Shown here piece by piece: positions 1-32,956 of a DNA stretch of 32,956 nucleotides; within the stretch, counting starts at the first letter, position 1; the number at the start of each line of letters is the position of its first letter. The notes below the pieces were generated by a model that was given only the letters and a program-made list of their open reading frames with translations, did not search any database and was not told where the DNA came from. The DNA is from a virus. The stretch is taken from the IMG/VR virus record IMGVR_UViG_3300045988_168513. The stretch is one strand, 5' to 3'. The position numbers and the translations under genes are program-made.

Positions 1-55
1 TAGTTTTTTATATAATTCTGTATTCGTTTCCATGTCGTTCATGTTACATTAAAGC
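1..55. repeat. Terminal 55-bp sequence identical to 32902..32956 (circular-closure overlap or terminal redundancy)
   Basis: Bases 1-55 (tagttttttatataattctg...catgttacattaaagc) recur exactly at 32902-32956. Minus-strand genes are contiguous across the junction: the erf ATG lies 1 nt after the stop of ORF 44..1246. Confidence 0.9.
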
Positions 56-1246
56 TCCACTCTCATGTATGTGCTTAATCATGTCTATGTACATCCAGTA
101 CTCCTCGATTTCTTTGTCCGAGTAATTATTTGAACGCCCTATATTTTCATAGTTAGACAGCCATTCGAAAATCGTATATTGCTTACAGCCGATTTGTATA
201 GCGTCGCAACCCCAATAAGTAATCGTATGACGGGAAGCGTGTATGCAAAGAGTATGTTTAACTTTGCAGCCGTTGCCCAGCTTGCAGCTGTCGCCCAGCT
301 TGCAGCCGTAGCCCAGCTCGCAGTCGTTGCCCAGCTTGCAGCCGTCGCCCAACTCGCAATCGTAGCCCAGCTTGCAATCGTAGCCCAGCCAGCAGCCGTA
401 GCCCAGCTTGCAGCCGTTGCCCAGCTTGCAGCTGTTGCCCAGCTTGCAGCCGTCGTCCAACTCGCAGCCGTAGCCCAGCTTGCAGCCGTCGCCCAGCTCG
501 CAGTCGTTGCCCAGCTTGCAGCCGTCGTCCAACTCGCAGCCGTCGCCCAGCTTGCAGCCGTCGCCCAGCTCGCAGTCGTCGCCCAACTCGCAATCGTAGC
601 CCAGCTTGCAGCCGTCGCCCAGCTTGCAGCTGTCGCCCAACTCGCAGCCGTCGCCCAGCCAGCAGCCGTAGCCCAGCTTGCAGCTGTCGCCCAGCTTGCA
701 ATCGTAGCCCAGCCAGCAATCGTAGCCCAGCTTGCAGCTGTCGCCCAGCTTGCAGCCGTCGCCCAGCTTGCAGCTGTCGCCCAACTCGCAGCCGTCGCCC
801 AGCCAGCAGCCGTAGCCCAGCTTGCAGCTGTCGCCCAGCTTGCAGCTGTCGCCCAGCTTGCAATCGTAGCCCAGCTTGCAATCGTAGCCCAGCTTGCAGC
901 CGTCGCCCAGCTTGCAGCCGTTGCCCAGCTTGCAGCTGTCGCCCAACTCGCAGCCGTAGCCCAGCTCGCAGTCGTTGCCCAGCTTGCAGCCGTCGTCCAA
1001 CTCGCAGCCGTAGCCCAGCTTGCAGCCGTCGCCCAGCTCGCAGTCGTAGCCCAGCCAGCAGCCGTAGCCCAGCTTGCAGCCGTCGCCCAGCTCGCAGTCG
1101 TTGCCCAGCTTGCAGCCGTCGCCCAGCTCGCAGTCGTTGCCTATCCGAATGTTGCGTATTGAAAATTCATGTGCTAAATCGGACAGAACATCGTATTCAA
1201 ACAACACCCATCCCTTGTCGGAATCATACAGATATAGCGTTTTCAT
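44..1246 (-). CDS. Cys-hexapeptide repeat protein, (C-x-L-G-x-x)x48, predicted left-handed beta-helix, with a Cys/His C-terminal domain shared with 30137..30751
   Basis: 400-aa ORF. Residues 39-326 are 48 consecutive hexapeptides C-[KEW]-L-[GD]-[DYN]-[GDS], fitting the hexapeptide-repeat consensus [LIV]-G-x-x-[small]-x with Cys in the small-residue slot. The N-terminus (38 aa) and C-terminus (74 aa, ..SRHTITYWGCDAIQIGCKQYTIFEW..) are unique. Confidence 0.8.
   Translation of the reverse strand: MKTLYLYDSDKGWVLFEYDVLSDLAHEFSIRNIRIGNDCELGDGCKLGNDCELGDGCKLGYGCWLGYDCELGDGCKLGYGCELDDGCKLGNDCELGYGCELGDSCKLGNGCKLGDGCKLGYDCKLGYDCKLGDSCKLGDSCKLGYGCWLGDGCELGDSCKLGDGCKLGDSCKLGYDCWLGYDCKLGDSCKLGYGCWLGDGCELGDSCKLGDGCKLGYDCELGDDCELGDGCKLGDGCELDDGCKLGNDCELGDGCKLGYGCELDDGCKLGNSCKLGNGCKLGYGCWLGYDCKLGYDCELGDGCKLGNDCELGYGCKLGDSCKLGNGCKVKHTLCIHASRHTITYWGCDAIQIGCKQYTIFEWLSNYENIGRSNNYSDKEIEEYWMYIDMIKHIHESGALM
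269..1144. repeat. 18-bp tandem repeat array (about 48 units, coding)
   Basis: The plus strand reads gcagccgtcgcccagctt and close variants (gcagctgtcgcccagctt, gcaatcgtagcccagcca, gcagccgtcgtccaactc, and others) head to tail. Variation is confined to a few positions. Blocks of units are duplicated internally (units 18-22 versus 26-30). Confidence 0.95.
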
Positions 1247-1248
1247 AA

Positions 1249-1587
1249 CTACTTAAAATATTTACGCAATTTATTGATGTTGAAATCATTGATTATTTCA
1301 TACCCTTCTTCAGCGTATGTGTGTACTTCGAGCCAGCACTGCCCAAGACTGTCGAACTCGCGGGAAAACTCTCCACCGGAAGTATTGCGGGTGTAGTGTA
1401 TCAAACCATAACCCGCAACAGACACAAACTGGTAACCATCGGCAGCGGAATCCGTTTCAAAACACACATCGGCTATCCTAAACTCGTCCGCCTCCGAATG
1501 CCAGCCCCGAATGTACGGCAGGGCATTATCTTCAATGTATTCAGCTATCTGCCGATAAATATCTTCCTCAATGTGCAGCGCTTCCAT
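1249..1587 (-). CDS. hypothetical protein (112 aa)
   Basis: ORF tightly packed between the methyltransferase and the repeat-protein gene on the same strand. No recognisable motif. Confidence 0.6.
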   Translation of the reverse strand: MEALHIEEDIYRQIAEYIEDNALPYIRGWHSEADEFRIADVCFETDSAADGYQFVSVAGYGLIHYTRNTSGGEFSREFDSLGQCWLEVHTYAEEGYEIINDFNINKLRKYFK

Positions 1588-1601: not shown

Positions 1602-2465
1602 CTATTCCAATTCGGCGATAATTCGTTTTTCACGCTCGGATAATTCCCAGACGATGACCGTCGCTTGCTTCGCCGCCTGCTTCGCCGCCTGCTTCGCCGC
1701 CTGTTCGTAAGCCTCGATTTTTCGCGCCGTGGCCTTATCCGAAAGGAGATATCCGCCTCCATAAACACCTCCCCCTTTCTGGTTATCGAGTTTGCGGACC
1801 CTTCGACATTCTGACGCCCGCACCTCGAATTTGACGTAAGGGGCTATCTTGCCCAACAATGCGGCGGATACCACATTGTCCGGGTAAATGTATTTTGGCA
1901 AATCCATAAGTCGTCGCTTCGTTTTTGCGGCATTTTTGATGCGGGCGAGCAGGTCGGGCGCGGTCATTATACGGATGTCGCCGAAAAGGTTGCTGGCGAA
2001 CGACGTAGCGACGCATGCCCCGTTTTCGTATGTCACCCGAGCGGCGCATACTATGCCCGTCCAATTCATGTCGACCGGACAGAGCAACGTTAGATGCGGC
2101 GCGAACAGAAAAAAGGATATGTCGCGAGACTGAAAAAAGCGGCACACCTGCGTAAATATCGAAAAGGGAGGATTATCGACCACCACGCAGCCGTCCGGAT
2201 AATCGTAGTGTTCGTAATCGCCGCCAGGCCAGAAGGGCCGCACGATTTCCCGCCCTTCTATGTCAACATTTTCCCGGAGCCATCCAAGGACAGCATCGTA
2301 AACCGGAGGTGGCGTGTAGCAGTCATCCGTCGTTTTTCGGGGCTTGAATTTCGCCACAAAACCGTCATAGTCCTCGTGTATCTCCCGTCTCGATTTACGG
2401 GTCGCCGTATCCCGCCGTGGTTCATCGGCGAAGAGAGAACCTTGTATATTCACGTCGTTAATCAT
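1602..2465 (-). CDS. putative N6-adenine (amino) DNA methyltransferase, phage Dam-like, orphan
   Basis: 287 aa with VVDNPPFS (motif IV, [DN]PP[YF]) preceded by DDCYTPPPVYD. There is no neighbouring endonuclease gene. C-terminal (AAKQ)3 tract. Confidence 0.6.
   Translation of the reverse strand: MINDVNIQGSLFADEPRRDTATRKSRREIHEDYDGFVAKFKPRKTTDDCYTPPPVYDAVLGWLRENVDIEGREIVRPFWPGGDYEHYDYPDGCVVVDNPPFSIFTQVCRFFQSRDISFFLFAPHLTLLCPVDMNWTGIVCAARVTYENGACVATSFASNLFGDIRIMTAPDLLARIKNAAKTKRRLMDLPKYIYPDNVVSAALLGKIAPYVKFEVRASECRRVRKLDNQKGGGVYGGGYLLSDKATARKIEAYEQAAKQAAKQAAKQATVIVWELSEREKRIIAELE
1667..1702. repeat. 12-bp tandem repeat x3 (gcttcgccgcct)
   Basis: Three perfect copies at 1667-1678, 1679-1690 and 1691-1702, encoding AAKQAAKQAAKQ near the methyltransferase C-terminus. 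Confidence 0.9.
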
Positions 2466-2560: not shown

Positions 2561-3211
2561 TTAATAGATACCGCGCTCCCATCTACCATTCCTTGATTTT
2601 GTTGGTGTTCTTAGCCCAGTGTATGCTAAATAGCGATATAGGGTTCCTCTTGCAATTCTCAATTTCTTAGCTATTTGTGGTACACTTATTCCTTTTTCCA
2701 TTTGACTCTCTATGTATTTGTGCTTAGCCACACATTTTGCGTTCAACTGTTTATTGCGTTGACCTTGACCTCTACCGACTGGATGTCCTTCCTTTTTTAA
2801 TCGAGCAAGGGCTTCTTTTGTTCGTTGAGAAATCAGATTACGTTCTATCTCTGCTGACAATCCAAAAGCAAAGGCAAGAACTTTACTTTGAATATCATCG
2901 CCAAGACGGTAATTATCTTTAATAGTCCAAACGCGACTCTCTTTGGTCATGCAAATGTTGAGTATTTCCATTATCATAAAAAGATTACGACCAAGCCGAG
3001 ACAGCTCCGTACAAATTATCAAATCGTCTTTGACAATTCGATTCAAAAGTTTACCAAGTGCTCGTTTGTTATAATTTTTAGTACCAGAGATAGTTTCTTC
3101 AATCCATCCATCTATAGTTAGACCTTCTTTTTTACAGAAACGCTCTATCTCGAAGCGTTGATTTTCCACCGTCTGTTTGTCTGTGGAAACACGGATATAG
3201 CCATATACCAT
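2561..3211 (-). CDS. small serine recombinase (resolvase/invertase family)
   Basis: 216 aa. N-terminal catalytic domain with YGYIRVSTDKQ (Ser nucleophile), ELSRLGRN and AEIERNLISQRTKEAL. C-terminal HTH ISVPQIAKKLRIARGTLYRYL. Confidence 0.9.
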   Translation of the reverse strand: MVYGYIRVSTDKQTVENQRFEIERFCKKEGLTIDGWIEETISGTKNYNKRALGKLLNRIVKDDLIICTELSRLGRNLFMIMEILNICMTKESRVWTIKDNYRLGDDIQSKVLAFAFGLSAEIERNLISQRTKEALARLKKEGHPVGRGQGQRNKQLNAKCVAKHKYIESQMEKGISVPQIAKKLRIARGTLYRYLAYTGLRTPTKSRNGRWERGIY

Positions 3212-3260
3212 TTTTAGATATATACCTCTTTTGTTTTGAAAAACAAAGGTTTTAGAGGCA

Positions 3261-3365
3261 TTATTTGTCGAACGCGAGAATCCTCGCCGGACGGCCGGCG
3301 CGCGTCATCACGGGGGCCCCGGCCTTGGCGGCCTCTAAATCGAAAGGTTTGAATTTATATTCCAT
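3261..3365 (-). pseudogene. 34-codon GC-rich ORF (MEYKFKPFDLEAAKAGAPVMTRAGRPARILAFDK), probable 5' remnant of a phage gene carried inside the cassette
   Basis: A GC-rich island inside otherwise AT-rich cassette DNA. The reading frame stops abruptly at TAA just upstream of the recombinase promoter region. Confidence 0.3.
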
Positions 3366-3412
3366 ATCTATTTCTTTATTAGATAAATAATCCTGTTCAT
3401 AATCCACCGAGC

Positions 3413-3445
3413 CTGCATTTCCAGCCGGTAACGAAGACGCGGACG
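3413..3445. repeat. 33-bp direct repeat, right copy
   Basis: Identical to 2527..2559. Confidence 0.95.
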
Positions 3446-3493
3446 TCTCTCCAATACGGTAATCCCTTCCATATTAATTTCATTTTAAACCTG

Positions 3494-3573
3494 CGGAACC
3501 GCGGGGATTCGAACCCCGACCTCACCCCAAAAATCTACCGAAAAAGGTGCGTGCCCATTTACACTTCGGTTCC
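3494..3573 (-). tRNA. tRNA-like gene with a canonical acceptor, D-arm and T-arm but a 17-nt anticodon loop (isotype not assignable)
   Basis: Minus-strand fold: a 7-bp Watson-Crick acceptor stem (GGAACCG/CGGTTCC), AA, D-arm GTGT-AAATGG-GCAC, G, stem CACCT/GGGTG enclosing TTTTCGGTAGATTTTTG, variable AGGT, T-arm CGGGG-TTCGAAT-CCCCG, discriminator G. No CCA is encoded. Confidence 0.45.
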
Positions 3574-3644
3574 ATTTCACCGCGGGCCTCGCGGATGACG
3601 GTGAAAAAATAATAACCTTCTTTTCTGACTATGGAACAAACGGT

Positions 3645-3977
3645 TTATCGTTCATTTCTCCAGTATCTTTTAAGTTCCTTGCCTGTAAAAACCTTCCTGC
3701 CTTTGGCATTGAAACTACACCTTATCCGCCCCGCCCTTAAATGAGTGCGTAATGTATGCGGACATATCCCGAGCACCTTCGCCGCCGCCGTTATGGGATA
3801 CCGTGCGCTGTCCGATATACTGGGGTCCTCGAATACCATAACCTTATCGTTTAAGACATTCTCGTAACAACAACTATCCGTTGTCCGAGCCCCGACGTGT
3901 GTTTGCTCGTTGTATATCTCCGGTCTAAATTTTGCGAAACCAGATAACATGAACTTTTTATCGTGGTGTACTTGCAT
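3645..3977 (-). CDS. helix-turn-helix DNA-binding protein (MerR/excisionase-type HTH), possibly the C-terminal part of a longer frameshifted product
   Basis: 110-aa ORF with ..YPITAAAKVLGICPHTLRTHLRAGRI... Its 5' end overlaps ORF 3851..4072 in the -1 frame. Confidence 0.6.
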   Translation of the reverse strand: MQVHHDKKFMLSGFAKFRPEIYNEQTHVGARTTDSCCYENVLNDKVMVFEDPSISDSARYPITAAAKVLGICPHTLRTHLRAGRIRCSFNAKGRKVFTGKELKRYWRNER

Positions 3978-20723: not shown

Positions 20724-21125
20724 ATGGGTAAGTATTTTACAATTCAAGAATTATGTCATTCCCGGACAGCTATCAAACAGGGTATAGACAATACTCCTCC
20801 TCCCAGTGCGAAAGTGAATTTGATAGTTCTTATCACGAATTGTCTCGACCCCATACGCGCATTATGGGGCGGTCCTGTAATTGTGAATAGCGGTTTTCGC
20901 ACGCCGATGCTGAACAAAGCAGTAGGCGGGACGGTCAATTCTCAACATATACAGGGAGAAGCAGCAGACATTACGGTAGGTTCACCAGACAAGAATCGTA
21001 GGTTGTTCAGCATGATTCAAGCAGCAGGGATTCAGTTCGACCAATTGATAGACGAAAGCAATTACGCATGGATACATGTTTCATGGAAAGCGACAGGGAA
21101 CCGGCAGCAGGTATTGCATTTATAA
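20724..21125 (+). CDS. peptidase M15 (VanY/L-Ala-D-Glu peptidase-like) endolysin
   Basis: SGFRTPMLNKAVGGTVNSQHIQGEAADI plus a distal WIHVS motif match the Zn-binding H-x6-D...H signature of M15 cell-wall peptidases. Confidence 0.85.
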   Translation: MGKYFTIQELCHSRTAIKQGIDNTPPPSAKVNLIVLITNCLDPIRALWGGPVIVNSGFRTPMLNKAVGGTVNSQHIQGEAADITVGSPDKNRRLFSMIQAAGIQFDQLIDESNYAWIHVSWKATGNRQQVLHL

Positions 21126-21241
21126 CCGACCGTTGCCCGGAGTGCGGCGCGTGGCTTATTCATCAATCCGGATGCGCAATATGTCCGGATTGCGGATGGA
21201 GTGCGTGTAGTCTTAAGGTGATGATTTATTTACTACTATAA
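21083..21241 (+). CDS. small Zn-ribbon ORF (52 aa; 57 aa if started at ATG 21068) overlapping the endolysin 3' end in the -1 frame
   Basis: MESDREPAAGIAFITDRCPECGAWLIHQSGCAICPDCGWSACSLKVMIYLLL, with a CPxC-x9-CxxCxxC motif. Below the ORF-track cutoff. Confidence 0.3.
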   Translation: MESDREPAAGIAFITDRCPECGAWLIHQSGCAICPDCGWSACSLKVMIYLLL

Positions 21242-21414
21242 TACATTGTATAGATAGTAATATTAAAATTCATTGTTATTTTAAAGATATTAGTAAATTT
21301 TTATATTTCAAAAATGATATAGAAAATATATTATATACTTATAAATTTAATATCAAAATTATTATTTCATCTGTAACCTCAACTATAGTTTAACATTAAA
21401 ATATAGAAATTATT

Positions 21415-21798
21415 ATGAAAATTGTCAATATAGTTAATATTCCTAATTATCCTAATTATACTATATACGGTAAGGATATAGAAACTTTAAAAATTTATGT
21501 TTCTGATTTATTGCCAAATGATAGTGAAGAATATAATAATGAAGATTTGTGTATTAATATAGATTATACTAATATTCAAGATGTAACATTTGGTGTATAT
21601 GATAATCCTAAAAATGATATTTATGATTATCGAATAAATATAAAGGAAAAGACTTTAGGTTATGTTGAACTTATATTTGAGAAATATAGTAGTTTTAATA
21701 GTGTAAAACTTTTTATATCAAATATGATAGATGATGATATTAATATGAATCCTATTCGTGAATATAAAGAAAGTATACGTATAAATAATAAATTATGA
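21415..21798 (+). CDS. hypothetical protein in a ~20% GC island (moron)
   Basis: 127 aa, Asn/Ile/Tyr/Asp-rich. It and the ~190 nt upstream are far more AT-rich than the rest of the genome. Two hairpins follow it. Confidence 0.6.
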   Translation: MKIVNIVNIPNYPNYTIYGKDIETLKIYVSDLLPNDSEEYNNEDLCINIDYTNIQDVTFGVYDNPKNDIYDYRINIKEKTLGYVELIFEKYSSFNSVKLFISNMIDDDINMNPIREYKESIRINNKL

Positions 21799-21812
21799 AA
21801 TAGGTAATAAAA

Positions 21813-21839
21813 AAGAGGCGGTGTCGGACTCCGCCTCTT
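21813..21839 (+). terminator. 9-bp stem hairpin after the moron
   Basis: aagaggcgg-tgtcggact-ccgcctctt. Confidence 0.5.
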
Positions 21840-21842
21840 AAT

Positions 21843-21863
21843 GAGACATAGCAATGTCTCTTT
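21843..21863 (+). terminator. second hairpin with a T-run
   Basis: gagacat-agca-atgtctc followed by ttt. Confidence 0.45.
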
Positions 21864-21906
21864 GCCAGATGGCATTTACAAAGATAGAAATTTTTATAAA
21901 ATATAC

Positions 21907-22140
21907 ATGATGGAAACAGACAAACTACTGCATGTATTGTGCGGATATGTTATTGCAGTTACTATCGGTATGTGGCTTCCGTGGCTCGGAGCTGTTGCCG
22001 GTATTGTAGCTGCGTTCGGTAAGGAGTTTTTGTGGGACAGGCTGCTGAAGCGCGGCACCTTCGAATGGGCGGATATAAATGCCACGCTCGTCGGCGTACT
22101 CATAGGTTTTTGCCTTGCCTTTCTTAGAAGTAATATATGA
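21907..22140 (+). CDS. small multi-pass membrane protein (holin candidate)
   Basis: MMETDKLLHVLCGYVIAVTIGMWLPWLGAVAGIVAAFGKEF...LVGVLIGFCLAFL contains hydrophobic helices. The track start at 21841 lies inside the terminator hairpins, so ATG 21907 is preferred. Confidence 0.55.
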   Translation: MMETDKLLHVLCGYVIAVTIGMWLPWLGAVAGIVAAFGKEFLWDRLLKRGTFEWADINATLVGVLIGFCLAFLRSNI

Positions 22141-29798: not shown

Positions 29799-30074
29799 CT
29801 ATTTTATTTGAAAATTCTCCCTCGTTTCGAGCCGAGCGCCGGGAACATCTTCCCCGCCCTTAATCGTCTGCGCTATCAGCTTCCGGTCTGGCGTGCGGGT
29901 GGTTTTCGTCACCACGAACTGCTCCGGCAATGCCGCCTCGTCGTCGATGTGCACCGCGGTGGACGGACGCACCGAAAGAGCGTATTTGCCCGCGGCCAGA
30001 CGCCTCACGTCCAGCGCCACGAATGCCTCCGCATCCAGTATCGAGGCCGCCACGTACCGATTGCTGTAGCTCAA
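29799..30074 (-). CDS. paralog of the C-terminal half of the Gp157-like protein (91 aa)
   Basis: LAAGKYALSVRPSTAVHIDDEAALPEQF..IKGGEDVPGARLETRENFQIK aligns with LEAGKYRLSFCKSTQVVIEDEGSIPERF..ITAGEEVPGAVLQENSNIQIR of 31755..32240. Confidence 0.6.
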   Translation of the reverse strand: MSYSNRYVAASILDAEAFVALDVRRLAAGKYALSVRPSTAVHIDDEAALPEQFVVTKTTRTPDRKLIAQTIKGGEDVPGARLETRENFQIK

Positions 30075-30136: not shown

Positions 30137-30751
30137 TTACGCCAGCCCGAACTTCACGCGGATAACATGCGCTATGGCCAGATATTCGCGGGCATACTGA
30201 CTATCGCCGTGCGTATGCCGTACTTTCGCCTCGAAAGCCTCTATATCGCCGTGGAAACAGCCGCATGTTATTTCGACACCGCCGTCCGACGTGCGGTAAG
30301 CGTGCGTATGCCTGCCTATGCTGCCGAATACGTCGAATCCGCAGTGGTCGTCATTGCCGGCTACCCGTGCATTGCCGTACACCCGTGCATTGCCGTACAC
30401 CCACGCATTGCCGGCTACCCGTGCATTGCCGTACACCCGTGCATTGCCGTACACCCACGCATTGCCGGCTACCCGTGCATTGCCGGCTACCCGTGCATTG
30501 CCGTACACCCACGCATTGCCGTACACCTGCGCATTTTCGTACACCCGTGCATTGCCGTACACCCGTGCATTGCCGTACACCTGCGCATTTTCGGACACCC
30601 ACGCATTGTCGGATAGGTTGTCCTCTTTTTCGATGAATCCGCCCAAGTCACCCGCATTTGCCCATTTGCAGTCACGCGTGCAGCGTATGCGGTGGAGGGT
30701 CTTGCCGTCCACTTCTATCGTTTCATCGGTCAGCTCGAAATTTTTTTCCAT
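30137..30751 (-). CDS. hexapeptide-repeat (N-A-x-V-x-G)x14 protein, beta-helix type, with the same C-terminal Cys/His domain family as 44..1246
   Basis: 204 aa. The N-terminus contains ..GDLGGFIEKEDNLSDNAWV... Fourteen units of NA[RQW]V[YA][GE] follow. The C-terminus GRHTHAYRTSDGGVEITCGCFHGDIEAFE aligns with SRHTITYWGCDAIQIGCKQYTIFEW. Confidence 0.75.
   Translation of the reverse strand: MEKNFELTDETIEVDGKTLHRIRCTRDCKWANAGDLGGFIEKEDNLSDNAWVSENAQVYGNARVYGNARVYENAQVYGNAWVYGNARVAGNARVAGNAWVYGNARVYGNARVAGNAWVYGNARVYGNARVAGNDDHCGFDVFGSIGRHTHAYRTSDGGVEITCGCFHGDIEAFEAKVRHTHGDSQYAREYLAIAHVIRVKFGLA
30356..30607. repeat. 18-bp tandem repeat array (14 units, coding)
   Basis: The plus strand reads ccgtgcattgccgtacac / ccacgcattgccggctac variants head to tail. 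Confidence 0.9.
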
Positions 30752-30839: not shown

Positions 30840-31196
30840 CTACAGCCGCTCGACGTCCTGTCTATGGAACTCGTTGGCATAGTTCCTCAACTTCTCGAGA
30901 ATCTCCAGTTCGTCGGCATCGGCATTACCGGCATTTTTTATCCAACTTAAAAAATGAAAACACAACTGGACACGCAGCCGTCTGTCTGTGCGCGCCGTCA
31001 GGGAGCCGCACCACAATGGGAGGCACGACAAATCCAGGTTGGCACCGCTCAGGTAGGCACCGCTCAGGTCGGCTCCGCGCAGGTTGGCTCCGCTCAGGTT
31101 GGCGTCGCGCAGGTTGGCTCCGCGCAGGTTGGCGTCGCGCAGGTTGGCTCCGCGCAGGTCTTTAGACGCGACCAAATCCCTTAAATTATCGTCCAT
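30840..31196 (-). CDS. pentapeptide-repeat protein
   Basis: Nine consecutive A(D/N)LxG-type pentapeptides ([45 protein letters not shown]) followed by a unique 60-aa C-terminus. Confidence 0.85.
31026..31160. repeat. 15-bp tandem repeat (9 units, coding)
   Basis: caggttggctccgcg-type units on the plus strand. Confidence 0.9.
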
Positions 31197-31754: not shown

Positions 31755-32240
31755 TTACCGTATTTGAATGTTGCTGTTTTCCTGTAAGACCGCCCCGGGG
31801 ACTTCCTCCCCGGCCGTTATGGCCGTTTTAAGCATCTGCTTGTCGTAGCCTATCGTAACCGTCCGAAACCGCTCCGGAATGCTTCCTTCGTCCTCGATGA
31901 CGACCTGCGTCGATTTGCAGAAAGAGAGTCGATACTTGCCAGCCTCCAACCGGTCTATGCCAAACAGCCGCAGCGCATCGGATAGCCGCCCGGACAGAAT
32001 ATCGATTTTCCGCTGTTCGCTTTTCTGCAATTTATTGAGTCGCGCCTTTTCGTCATGGATAGCTTTCAGTCGTGCTTTTGCGTCGAGTATCGACGCTGAA
32101 TAATCCTCCGCCTTCTGCCGCAGATTCTCCTCGTTGATGGACAGCGCCTCCCCCAGCTCCGGAGTGAGGACGCCTTCCGATGCCTCTATCGCATCGTTCA
32201 GCCACTGTTGCGTGGCAGTAATCTGATAAAGTGAACTCAT
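31755..32240 (-). CDS. Gp157-like protein (coiled-coil N-terminus, conserved C-terminus)
   Basis: 161 aa starting at MSSLYQITATQQW.. The track ORF extends to 32492 inside erf. The ATG lies 4 nt after the erf stop. The family call rests on pattern recognition only. Confidence 0.5.
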   Translation of the reverse strand: MSSLYQITATQQWLNDAIEASEGVLTPELGEALSINEENLRQKAEDYSASILDAKARLKAIHDEKARLNKLQKSEQRKIDILSGRLSDALRLFGIDRLEAGKYRLSFCKSTQVVIEDEGSIPERFRTVTIGYDKQMLKTAITAGEEVPGAVLQENSNIQIR

Positions 32241-32244
32241 GCTG

Positions 32245-32943
32245 TTATGCTGTTTGTTTCTGTTTATATTCCCTGTACAATTCTCCGACGCGGTTAATCT
32301 CGCCGGAAGTAATCCCGGCATACTGTGTTTCCAGCAGCCGGGCGATACTGAATGTATTCCCCGCGTCCCTGCTTTCTGCCTCCTTTTTATCCAGCCACTT
32401 GCAGACGATATTGACACTAACAGGGTCTTCAAGCACCTGCGGATTGAATGTCTTTTTGGACGGGTGTGTCTCCCCGGCCGGCATACTGCCATTCTTTTCC
32501 CGAAGAGCGTCTACATCATCCTCGTCGGTCGGAATATGGAAAAATTTCATCAGGAAATATCGTTCCCCATAGGTCATGGCCGAACCTGCTCCTTTATCCC
32601 AATCGTTCTGCCCGTTCGCTGCCCACTCGCACATCTCCTGCTGCCCGCTCTCCGCATCTATCCAGGTGAAGCGCATTTTTAGCGATGTATGCACCTCCGA
32701 TTTGTCGCGTTGTTCGCGCCCTACCTTGTAATCCTGCCTCGTGTTGACAATATCGACGATTTCAGATTTGAGAAGAAGTCCCAGCTCGTCCATCTTCGGA
32801 CGAACGACACTAAGCAGCTTGTTGCCGGAGACATATTTATAATCACCTGTCCCTCCCTGTTTCTCGGGGAAAAGACCGCGCACGGCCTTCTGCAACTCCA
32901 ATAGTTTTTTATATAATTCTGTATTCGTTTCCATGTCGTTCAT
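32245..32943 (-). CDS. erf: ERF-family single-strand annealing protein
   Basis: 232 aa. ..YKYVSGNKLLSVVRPKMDELGLLL.. and ..GSAMTYGERYFLMKFFHIP.. resemble ERF/SSAP core motifs. Adjacent to the Gp157-like and SSB-type genes. Confidence 0.6.
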   Translation of the reverse strand: MNDMETNTELYKKLLELQKAVRGLFPEKQGGTGDYKYVSGNKLLSVVRPKMDELGLLLKSEIVDIVNTRQDYKVGREQRDKSEVHTSLKMRFTWIDAESGQQEMCEWAANGQNDWDKGAGSAMTYGERYFLMKFFHIPTDEDDVDALREKNGSMPAGETHPSKKTFNPQVLEDPVSVNIVCKWLDKKEAESRDAGNTFSIARLLETQYAGITSGEINRVGELYREYKQKQTA

Positions 32944-32956
32944 GTTACATTAAAGC
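32902..32956. repeat. Terminal 55-bp sequence identical to 1..55
   Basis: Exact duplicate of the window start. Confidence 0.9.

Follow-up and report, generated by a model that had tools for sequence, protein, structure and literature searches.

The window analysed here is the entire 32,956-nt stretch of the IMG/VR virus record IMGVR_UViG_3300045988_168513, and the subject of this analysis is a repeat gene on its minus strand at 44..1246 (stop codon at 44-46), a complete open reading frame (ORF) that encodes a 400-aa Cys/Leu hexapeptide-repeat protein matching Pfam Hexapep (3.7e-63) and PHROG 5353 (1.9e-79). The protein begins with an N-terminal cap (residues 1-38, MKTLYLYDSDKGWVLFEYDVLSDLAHEFSIRNIRIGND; 1133..1246, minus strand, as are all parts of the gene), which is conserved across the family and for which AlphaFold2 (AF2) predicts a beta-hairpin and a helix (strands at residues 3-8 and 12-17, helix at 22-31). 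It continues with 48 tandem 18-bp units (residues 39-326, C-x-L-G-x-x; 269..1132) that are predicted to form a beta-solenoid of ~16 turns. These are followed by a degenerate terminal unit, CKVKHT (residues 327-332; 251..268), which is kept in the close lineage and reads CDVPKS in the sister clade, and by a C-terminal alpha/beta domain (residues 333-400, ..ASRHTITYWGCDAIQIGCKQYTI.EW...IG...YS..EIEEY..YID; 47..250) with 4 short strands and 3 helices.

Residues 39-326 consist of exactly 48 uninterrupted, in-register hexapeptides of the form C-[KEW]-L-[GD]-[DYN]-[GDS]. An earlier note on this DNA had described the same array, and it is borne out by both the ORF translation and Tandem Repeats Finder, which reports a repeat at 264..1141 with period 18, 48.8 copies, 83% matches, 0 indels and a score of 1119, far above chance. 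Slot 1 is Cys and slot 3 is Leu in 48/48 units, and slot 4 is Gly in 45 and Asp in 3, with the remaining slots drawn from small residue sets: K (28), E (15) or W (5) at slot 2; D (24), Y (16) or N (8) at slot 5; and G (26), D (13) or S (9) at slot 6. The array has a net charge of -28 and an isoelectric point (pI) of 4.2, which corresponds to -0.56 per unit or about -1.7 per 4.8-Å turn, and the whole 400-aa protein has a net charge of -32. At the DNA level, 10 of the 18 positions in the unit are invariant, and a total of 16 distinct unit sequences arise from variation in codons 2, 5 and 6, at two synonymous sites and through three G-to-D changes at codon 4. The earlier note had remarked on both the small number of variable positions and the duplication of multi-unit blocks; both are real, with its unit numbering one off. 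A 102-nt stretch is duplicated exactly at plus-strand positions 599-700 (units 25-29) and 743-844 (units 17-21; feature span 599..844), such that units 17-21 (plus 12 nt) are identical to units 25-29, rather than 18-22 to 26-30, and unit 22 is not the same as unit 30. Other exact repeats within the array measure 74 nt (434/974) and 64 nt (464/1058).

Alternative frames through the repeat are likewise open, and only the 44..1246 frame links the conserved N-terminal segment with the conserved C-terminal domain. Because these end domains recur in 163 orthologues, and because the ratio of nonsynonymous to synonymous differences (pN/pS) among the 48 units is 0.16 at the core codons (Cys, Leu, Gly) versus 1.4 at the exposed codons, we conclude that the gene is translated in this frame. 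It is a real, translated early gene, carried by a temperate phage of Bacteroidaceae. A diversity-generating retroelement that would target the exposed codons was considered in light of their NAC and RRC patterns and was rejected: none of the nine large plus-strand ORFs (149-992 aa; smaller plus-strand ORFs lay outside the scan) matches a reverse transcriptase model (RVT), and the sister clade uses other codon sets, its variable codons not being AAC-derived.

Profile and structure-prediction evidence supports a left-handed beta-helix (LbH) fold with ~16 predicted turns. The earlier note proposed to read the unit as L-G-x-x-C-x, in the register of the LbH hexapeptide, and this reading agrees with what we observe. 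The protein scores 207.2 bits against Pfam Hexapep over nine stretches (cut-off 27) and 116.9 bits against LbH_EIF2B (cut-off 54), which places its repeat within the hexapeptide-repeat/LbH superfamily (PF00132, PF25084; [LIV]-[GAED]-x-x-[STAVC]-x) above the gathering thresholds. A search of the PDB with a profile of 80 orthologues retrieves LbH proteins only (eIF2B-epsilon, LpxD, LpxA, GlmU and dynactin p25/p27), all of them through the repeat. Structure prediction, which the earlier note had suggested as a check, gives a regular solenoid: the AF2 model of the window protein (78-sequence alignment) has a mean predicted local distance difference test score (pLDDT) of 81.5, with a two-residue strand every 6 residues across residues 39-330 and pLDDT values of 72-91 in the array. 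The same model contains the N-terminal hairpin and helix as well as a C-terminal domain with a pLDDT of about 88-92, and the C-terminal domain of a 9-unit orthologue (P0125) is predicted at 83-94. When compared to BFVD, the protein matches only unnamed or uncharacterised phage solenoid proteins.

The PHROG 5353 match aligns residues 203-396 with profile positions 65-249 of 256 and thus spans the repeats and the C-terminal domain, such that the window protein belongs to this family. It differs from the 256-position profile in its length of 400 aa, with 48 units in the array. PHROG 32789 matches residues 340-396, and PHROG 2154 is listed alongside. By word search, we find 163 orthologues with lengths that differ in 6-aa steps, and a HMMER search with the orthologue profile against 1.84 billion cluster representatives (50% identity) returns 2055 matches at E<=1e-3 and 430 at E<=1e-10. 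The family plan consists of a ~36-aa N-cap, a hexapeptide array and a ~70-aa C-terminal alpha/beta domain, with the N-domain present also in distant representatives. The end domains are strongly conserved to below 50% identity: among 80 orthologues, the N-cap columns are invariant or near-invariant, and in the C-terminal part (P0125 numbering) C114, W122, Y135, D148 and H154 are invariant and H100 is nearly so. By these sequence relationships, the repeat protein is a member of a large, widespread and uncharacterised Bacteroidota-phage protein family. Hosts are Bacteroidaceae, and a homologue with a degenerate array occurs in cultured Flavobacterium columnare phages, including V156 (ASD52775.1). 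We found no description in the literature of the capped non-enzymatic architecture, the Cys/Leu core variant or the extreme repeat-number instability, and no family in PADLOC-DB is matched by the window protein, P0125 or the neighbouring genes. Two suspected relationships were discarded: homology between the C-terminal domain of the window protein and that of a broader Cys-hexapeptide family, which was suspected by eye and receives an hhalign probability of 0.2%, and a 2071-aa match (P0310) that proved to be spurious eukaryotic low-complexity sequence. On several IMG/VR contigs (L029/L030, L041/L045, L054/L079, L071/L076, L072/L085 and L075/L081), we also observe two copies of the repeat gene 10-40 kb apart, which are either concatemeric assemblies or true paralogues.

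The residue at the Cys slot varies across this family, with frequencies of 0.29 for A, 0.21 for C, 0.20 for V and 0.07-0.08 each for I, T and S. Most relatives combine the same N- and C-terminal domains with canonical small residues at this position, as in 'anigdsakigds', 'ssigdsssig' and 'ttignrttig'. The slot also covaries with the Ile or Leu position of the unit: Cys is paired with Leu in 212 cases versus Ile in 90, whereas Ala (393 with Ile, 7 with Leu), Ser (81 and 10) and Thr (89 and 5) are paired with Ile. In diverged Cys-type arrays, in which the inter-unit DNA identity has fallen to 0.62-0.72, Cys is kept by both TGC and TGT codons. These patterns indicate that Cys (i+4) and Leu (i) form an alternative buried core that is selected for packing and can be swapped with Ala, Ser, Thr or Val plus Ile. 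Since Cys is replaceable within the family and covaries with Leu, we regard it as a core variant, which argues against a metal-binding or redox role. The earlier note had treated Cys as a special feature and had not recognised the variant; neither point survives, given the A, V, S, T or I found at the slot in members with the same end domains, the covariation with Leu, the PHROG 5353 match and the fact that Cys-type arrays are common in phage metagenomes.

Repeat number varies greatly among relatives. Where the end domains are nearly identical, orthologues carry 3-18 units, most commonly 5, and the 69 related loci in IMG/VR and genome assemblies range from 4 to at least 33 units. Independent long arrays include those of 25 units (in a Bacteroidaceae genome assembly), 29 units, at least 26 units and at least 33 units, the arrays given as minima being cut short by contig ends. 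The sequences flanking the array in a 9-unit phage are 99.8%/99.3% identical to those of the window, and in 17-unit phages the corresponding values are 98.4%/96.8%. That flanks of >99% identity accompany different unit counts means that whole-unit gain and loss far outpaces point mutation. This comparison across related phages agrees with the recent expansion and polymorphic copy number predicted in the earlier note, while the modal count of 5 units contradicts the notion that a giant rod is functionally needed. Unit counts that are multiples of 3 are not favoured, and the relative orientation and distance of the two end domains are therefore unconstrained. The 48-unit array itself is an uncorroborated singleton at the extreme of the family.

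With regard to genomic context, positions 1..55 of the window are identical to 32902-32956, the signature of an assembly with k-mers of 55 nt (k=55). Because the first and last 55 nt are the same, the contig is circular and represents a complete phage with a real length of 32,901 bp. The artificial contig break is crossed by erf (32245..32943, minus strand), which encodes a single-strand annealing protein (SSAP; Pfam ERF 1.2e-19, PHROG 155 8e-32). Through the circular junction, the erf ATG at 32943-32941 corresponds to 42-40 and starts 1 nt past the stop codon of the repeat gene, in agreement with the spacing given in the earlier note once the overlap is counted. No terminator-like site was found on the minus strand between the two genes. 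The minus-strand early operon in which they lie starts with a helix-turn-helix protein, a serine recombinase, a 287-aa protein with a DNPPF motif (phrog_21498) and an acidic 112-aa protein of pI 4.5 that lacks a family match (1249..1587, minus strand), followed by the repeat gene and erf. It continues with a Gp157/Gam-like gene, a pentapeptide-repeat protein, a YdcK-type solenoid, a short second Gp157-like ORF (29799..30074) and a 99-aa ORF without a family match, and ends with NinB, a Holliday-junction resolvase, DnaD-like and DnaC-like loaders and a C5 methyltransferase.

In the close lineage, the 112-aa gene is syntenic and its order with the repeat gene, ERF and Gp157 is kept. Among the 69 related loci, only 5 have erf immediately downstream, and thus the linkage to erf suggested by the earlier note does not extend to the family as a general trait. 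The adjacency is lineage-specific, and the repeat gene does not qualify as a component of an Erf-associated recombination module. In the sister clade, it instead closes an operon of integrase, methyltransferase and HNH genes or comes after C5 and Dam methyltransferases, and genes of the broader Cys-hexapeptide family are found beside primase, helicase, single-stranded DNA-binding protein (SSB) and VRR_NUC genes. This early, non-structural context argues for a cytoplasmic early accessory protein rather than a part of the virion.

Two other solenoid genes lie in the same operon. The YdcK-type gene (30137-30751, minus strand; Pfam YdcK beta-solenoid 4e-21) encodes 204 aa with ~14 [YA]GNA[RW]V hexapeptides and contains an 18-bp repeat at 30352-30608, and the pentapeptide-repeat gene (30840-31196, minus strand; Pfam Pentapeptide 4.6e-16) encodes 118 aa and contains a 15-bp repeat at 31035-31159 in 8.3 copies. 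The YdcK-type orthologue in a 98%-identical phage (L003, 5986-7035) lies upstream of the Cys-repeat gene and has 349 aa with ~40 units versus 14 in the window, from which it follows that this array is length-hypervariable as well. A further YdcK-type solenoid is encoded by gp34 (2871-3689) of the cultured Firmicutes phage phiRM10 (MT980841.1), which has 272 aa, ~28 near-identical hexapeptides and a GCF.G..EF C-terminal domain and lies two genes upstream of Mu-Gam-like, Rad52-type SSAP and NinB genes. Solenoid genes thus recur beside SSAP modules. All three of these YdcK-type proteins share with the window protein the plan of a small N-domain, length-hypervariable hexapeptides and a conserved C-terminal domain, as well as the early/recombination neighbourhood. 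They differ in their motif, [YSC]G[ND]A[RQW]V, and in a C-terminal domain (GCF.G..EF..KV..HG) that matches the broader Cys-hexapeptide family (P0002 type) and not detectably that of the window protein. For the YdcK-type protein in the window, hhalign identifies the C-terminal domain (FGSIGRHTHAYR..ITCGCFHGDIEAFEAKVRHTHG) as a homologue of its counterpart in this broader family (94%, E 1e-7). In the related phages L003-L005, a DUF3127 gene takes the place of the pentapeptide gene.

The best overall explanation, which we consider moderately probable on sequence grounds, is that the repeat gene encodes a capped LbH early protein whose end domains are functional and whose hypervariable acidic rod serves as a spacer. 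In such a scheme, near-identical 18-bp units would be gained and lost in frame through unequal recombination or replication slippage, possibly aided by the phage SSAP, and a unit turnover much faster than point mutation would lead to an extreme allele such as the present one, with 48 units and ~16 turns. Around the Cys/Leu core, the exposed slots 2, 5 and 6 vary within their small residue set and would produce an acidic and presumably monomeric rod with acidic corners and K/E/W faces. The conserved end domains would carry any specific interaction with a cellular target, and the rod may act as a rigid spacer or surface with a length that is nearly unconstrained or under diversifying pressure. 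Expressed with methyltransferase and recombination genes, the protein could be an early accessory, anti-host or anti-defence factor.

A number of observations weigh against this explanation. The array of the 9-unit orthologue is predicted with low confidence (pLDDT 55-65), and a Foldseek comparison of the full model with the PDB gives, among the matches listed, only weak matches to long right-handed beta-helices (template modelling score, TM <=0.38), so that left-handedness rests on the sequence-profile evidence and the covariation of slots i and i+4. The C-terminal domain has no structural match in the PDB (Foldseek, short model, E >=2.6), and the assignment of function to the end domains is hence based solely on their conservation. 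Searches of the literature on Cys-hexapeptide, LbH or YdcK phage proteins returned nothing specific, nor any member with an experimental or annotated function. An exposed-codon pN/pS of just 1.4 does not separate relaxed from diversifying selection. Finally, the exact 48-unit protein has no record in our look-up, and exact searches with internal 54-nt and 72-nt blocks of its array found nothing among IMG/VR and JGI metagenome contigs.

These absences from the collections searched also bear on whether the length of 48 units is an artefact, in which a k=55 short-read de Bruijn loop, or the chaining of strain variants, has inflated a shorter array. An inflated or chimeric array is conceivable because the k of 55 implied by the terminal overlap is smaller than all three exact repeats of 102, 74 and 64 nt; 156 of the 946 55-mers are non-unique, and other paths through the graph would yield about 15, 18, 40 or 56 units. 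Units 34-48 of the window are nearly the same as the entire array of a common 16-unit orthologue (P0121), and several IMG/VR contigs break within such arrays. We nevertheless consider an artefact unlikely, as no 127-mer is repeated and the array would be resolvable with 150-nt reads, the array is fully in frame without junction anomalies, and independent assemblies contain the long arrays described above. In addition, a related phage has a ~40-unit array in its sister solenoid gene, which indicates that the lineage genuinely carries long arrays.

Among alternative functions, a Cys ladder whose 48 stacked thiols coordinate metal ions, assemble Fe-S or Cu clusters or serve as a redox or disulfide sink would account for one Cys per six residues in 48 consecutive units and for its retention through both codons in diverged arrays. 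We judge this to be highly improbable, as Ala, Val, Ser or Thr replaces Cys in members with the same end domains, and the covariation with the other buried residue places Cys in a packed core. In LbH structures, positions i and i+4 face inward and no cavity is left. The insect antifreeze proteins TmAFP and CfAFP likewise have a regular Cys ladder within a beta-helix; unlike the window protein, they are secreted proteins with disulfide bonds, coils of 12 or 15 residues and an ice-binding face made of Thr, and no relationship in sequence is expected. An enzymatic role is also unlikely from the sequence. That the protein might be a trimeric LbH acyl- or acetyltransferase, using conserved His and Cys residues of the C-terminal region to modify a host or phage molecule, is suggested by the [LIV]-G-x-x-[small]-x repeat, with its Hexapep, LbH_EIF2B, NCBIfam and PDB profile similarity to LpxA, LpxD, GlmU and NeuD/PglD, by JGI auto-annotation of some homologues as acyltransferases, and by two residues right after the last coil, the His of SRH (nearly invariant) and the Cys of IGC (invariant). 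However, the NCBIfam scores stay far below their cut-offs (LpxD 145/207, LpxA 80/231, GlmU 68/367, NeuD 112/161) and involve the repeat part only, and orthologues with 3-5 units cannot make an acyl-CoA groove. Coil number is unconstrained, and K, E and W are shuffled on all three faces, such that neither a trimer interface nor a substrate face is conserved; a face-specific charge pattern suggestive of fixed geometry was looked for in the array and not found. In contrast to these enzymes, the window protein has no catalytic or flanking enzyme domains, has hypervariable coils and a uniform Cys/Leu core, and is encoded in an early operon of a phage. It does not belong to this group, and we give the acyltransferase reading very little credence. 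In eIF2B epsilon/gamma and dynactin p25/p27, the LbH is a structural element, and eIF2B-epsilon, the best PDB profile match, has sporadic Cys at the same slot; these scaffolds differ in being eukaryotic, fixed in length and embedded in larger complexes.

A less remote alternative, though still an unlikely one, is that the acidic beta-helix is a DNA-mimic or decoy rod that blocks a host nuclease or a restriction or defence enzyme, protecting phage DNA and Erf recombination, with a footprint tuned by its length. By analogy, pentapeptide-repeat proteins that target gyrase and the nuclease inhibitors Gam, gp5.9 and Ocr might serve as precedents. A review describes beta-solenoid pentapeptide proteins as DNA mimics that dimerise via C-terminal helices (PMC10886550), and Qnr and MfpA resemble the window protein in their capped repeat solenoid, acidic surface and C-terminal helical module (PMC10886550), with a pentapeptide gene present in the same operon. 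They differ in having a period of 5, with the motif A(D/N)LXX, and a right-handed quadrilateral helix as opposed to a period of 6 (18 bp), and we detect no homology and no Pentapeptide Pfam match. The net charge and pI of the array are in keeping with mimicry, as are the net negative charge of 64-81% of family arrays, the location of the gene 1 nt before erf, within an operon that also contains Gam-like/Gp157, NinB and methyltransferase genes, and the equivalent place of the YdcK-type solenoid gene of Ruminococcus phage phiRM10, upstream of Gam-like and SSAP genes. On the other hand, the modal orthologue of ~5 units makes fewer than 2 turns, and some have 3 units, which is too short for duplex mimicry. 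The acidity of family arrays is only mild (median -0.16 to -0.33 per unit), with 19-36% of them not net negative; the charge of the rod runs along three straight corner ridges, the faces being K-rich, rather than in a helical, phosphate-like pattern, and erf adjacency is limited to the 5 loci noted above. No known anti-defence or defence model is matched, and the EVADES anti-defence survey makes no mention of solenoid or hexapeptide proteins. An extension that we rate as more doubtful still concerns the capped early-operon beta-solenoids of temperate gut phages as a class, comprising the Cys/Leu hexapeptide, YdcK-type hexapeptide and pentapeptide proteins. Their repeat number would be unstable by design and act as a contingency locus, with whole-unit changes, possibly SSAP-driven, quickly adjusting the length and surface of the rods to generate DNA-mimic or decoy inhibitors or escape variants in an arms race with host nucleases or immune sensors, in which case the 48 units would be adaptive and not the result of drift.

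As a probable capped LbH early protein with a hypervariable rod, the window protein is of wider interest. Should the allele prove genuine, the rod would count as a very long and near-idealised natural LbH, with ~16 predicted turns and an all-Cys/Leu core, relevant to the folding and design of repeat proteins. It also belongs to a large family of Bacteroidota-phage early proteins in which repeat number changes between phages of >99% identity, as it does in a second solenoid gene, and which probably marks a fast-evolving host-interaction locus in abundant gut phages that is apparently uncharacterised. The family is experimentally tractable, since Flavobacterium columnare phages with a homologue are in culture and Ruminococcus phage phiRM10 encodes the analogous YdcK-type protein.

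Several neighbouring features were observed in passing. The 287-aa protein upstream of the 112-aa gene (1602-2465, minus strand) has no Pfam match, and its DNPPF motif is characteristic of N6-adenine or N4-cytosine DNA methyltransferases. A 12-bp repeat at 1662-1707, close to the C-terminus of the protein, encodes (AAKQ)x3. The two Sipho_Gp157/Mu-Gam-like ORFs (29799-30074 and 31755-32241, both on the minus strand) bracket the pentapeptide and YdcK-type genes, and the shorter ORF aligns only with the C-terminal half of the Pfam model. That the Gp157-like ORFs on either side of the solenoid cassette are duplicates was considered and rejected: they have no detectable DNA or protein similarity and are therefore not the product of a recent duplication. 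Lastly, GC content dips to 0.30 at 21001-22000, versus ~0.47 for the genome, in a region between the structural and early modules that is possibly a moron or lysis cassette.

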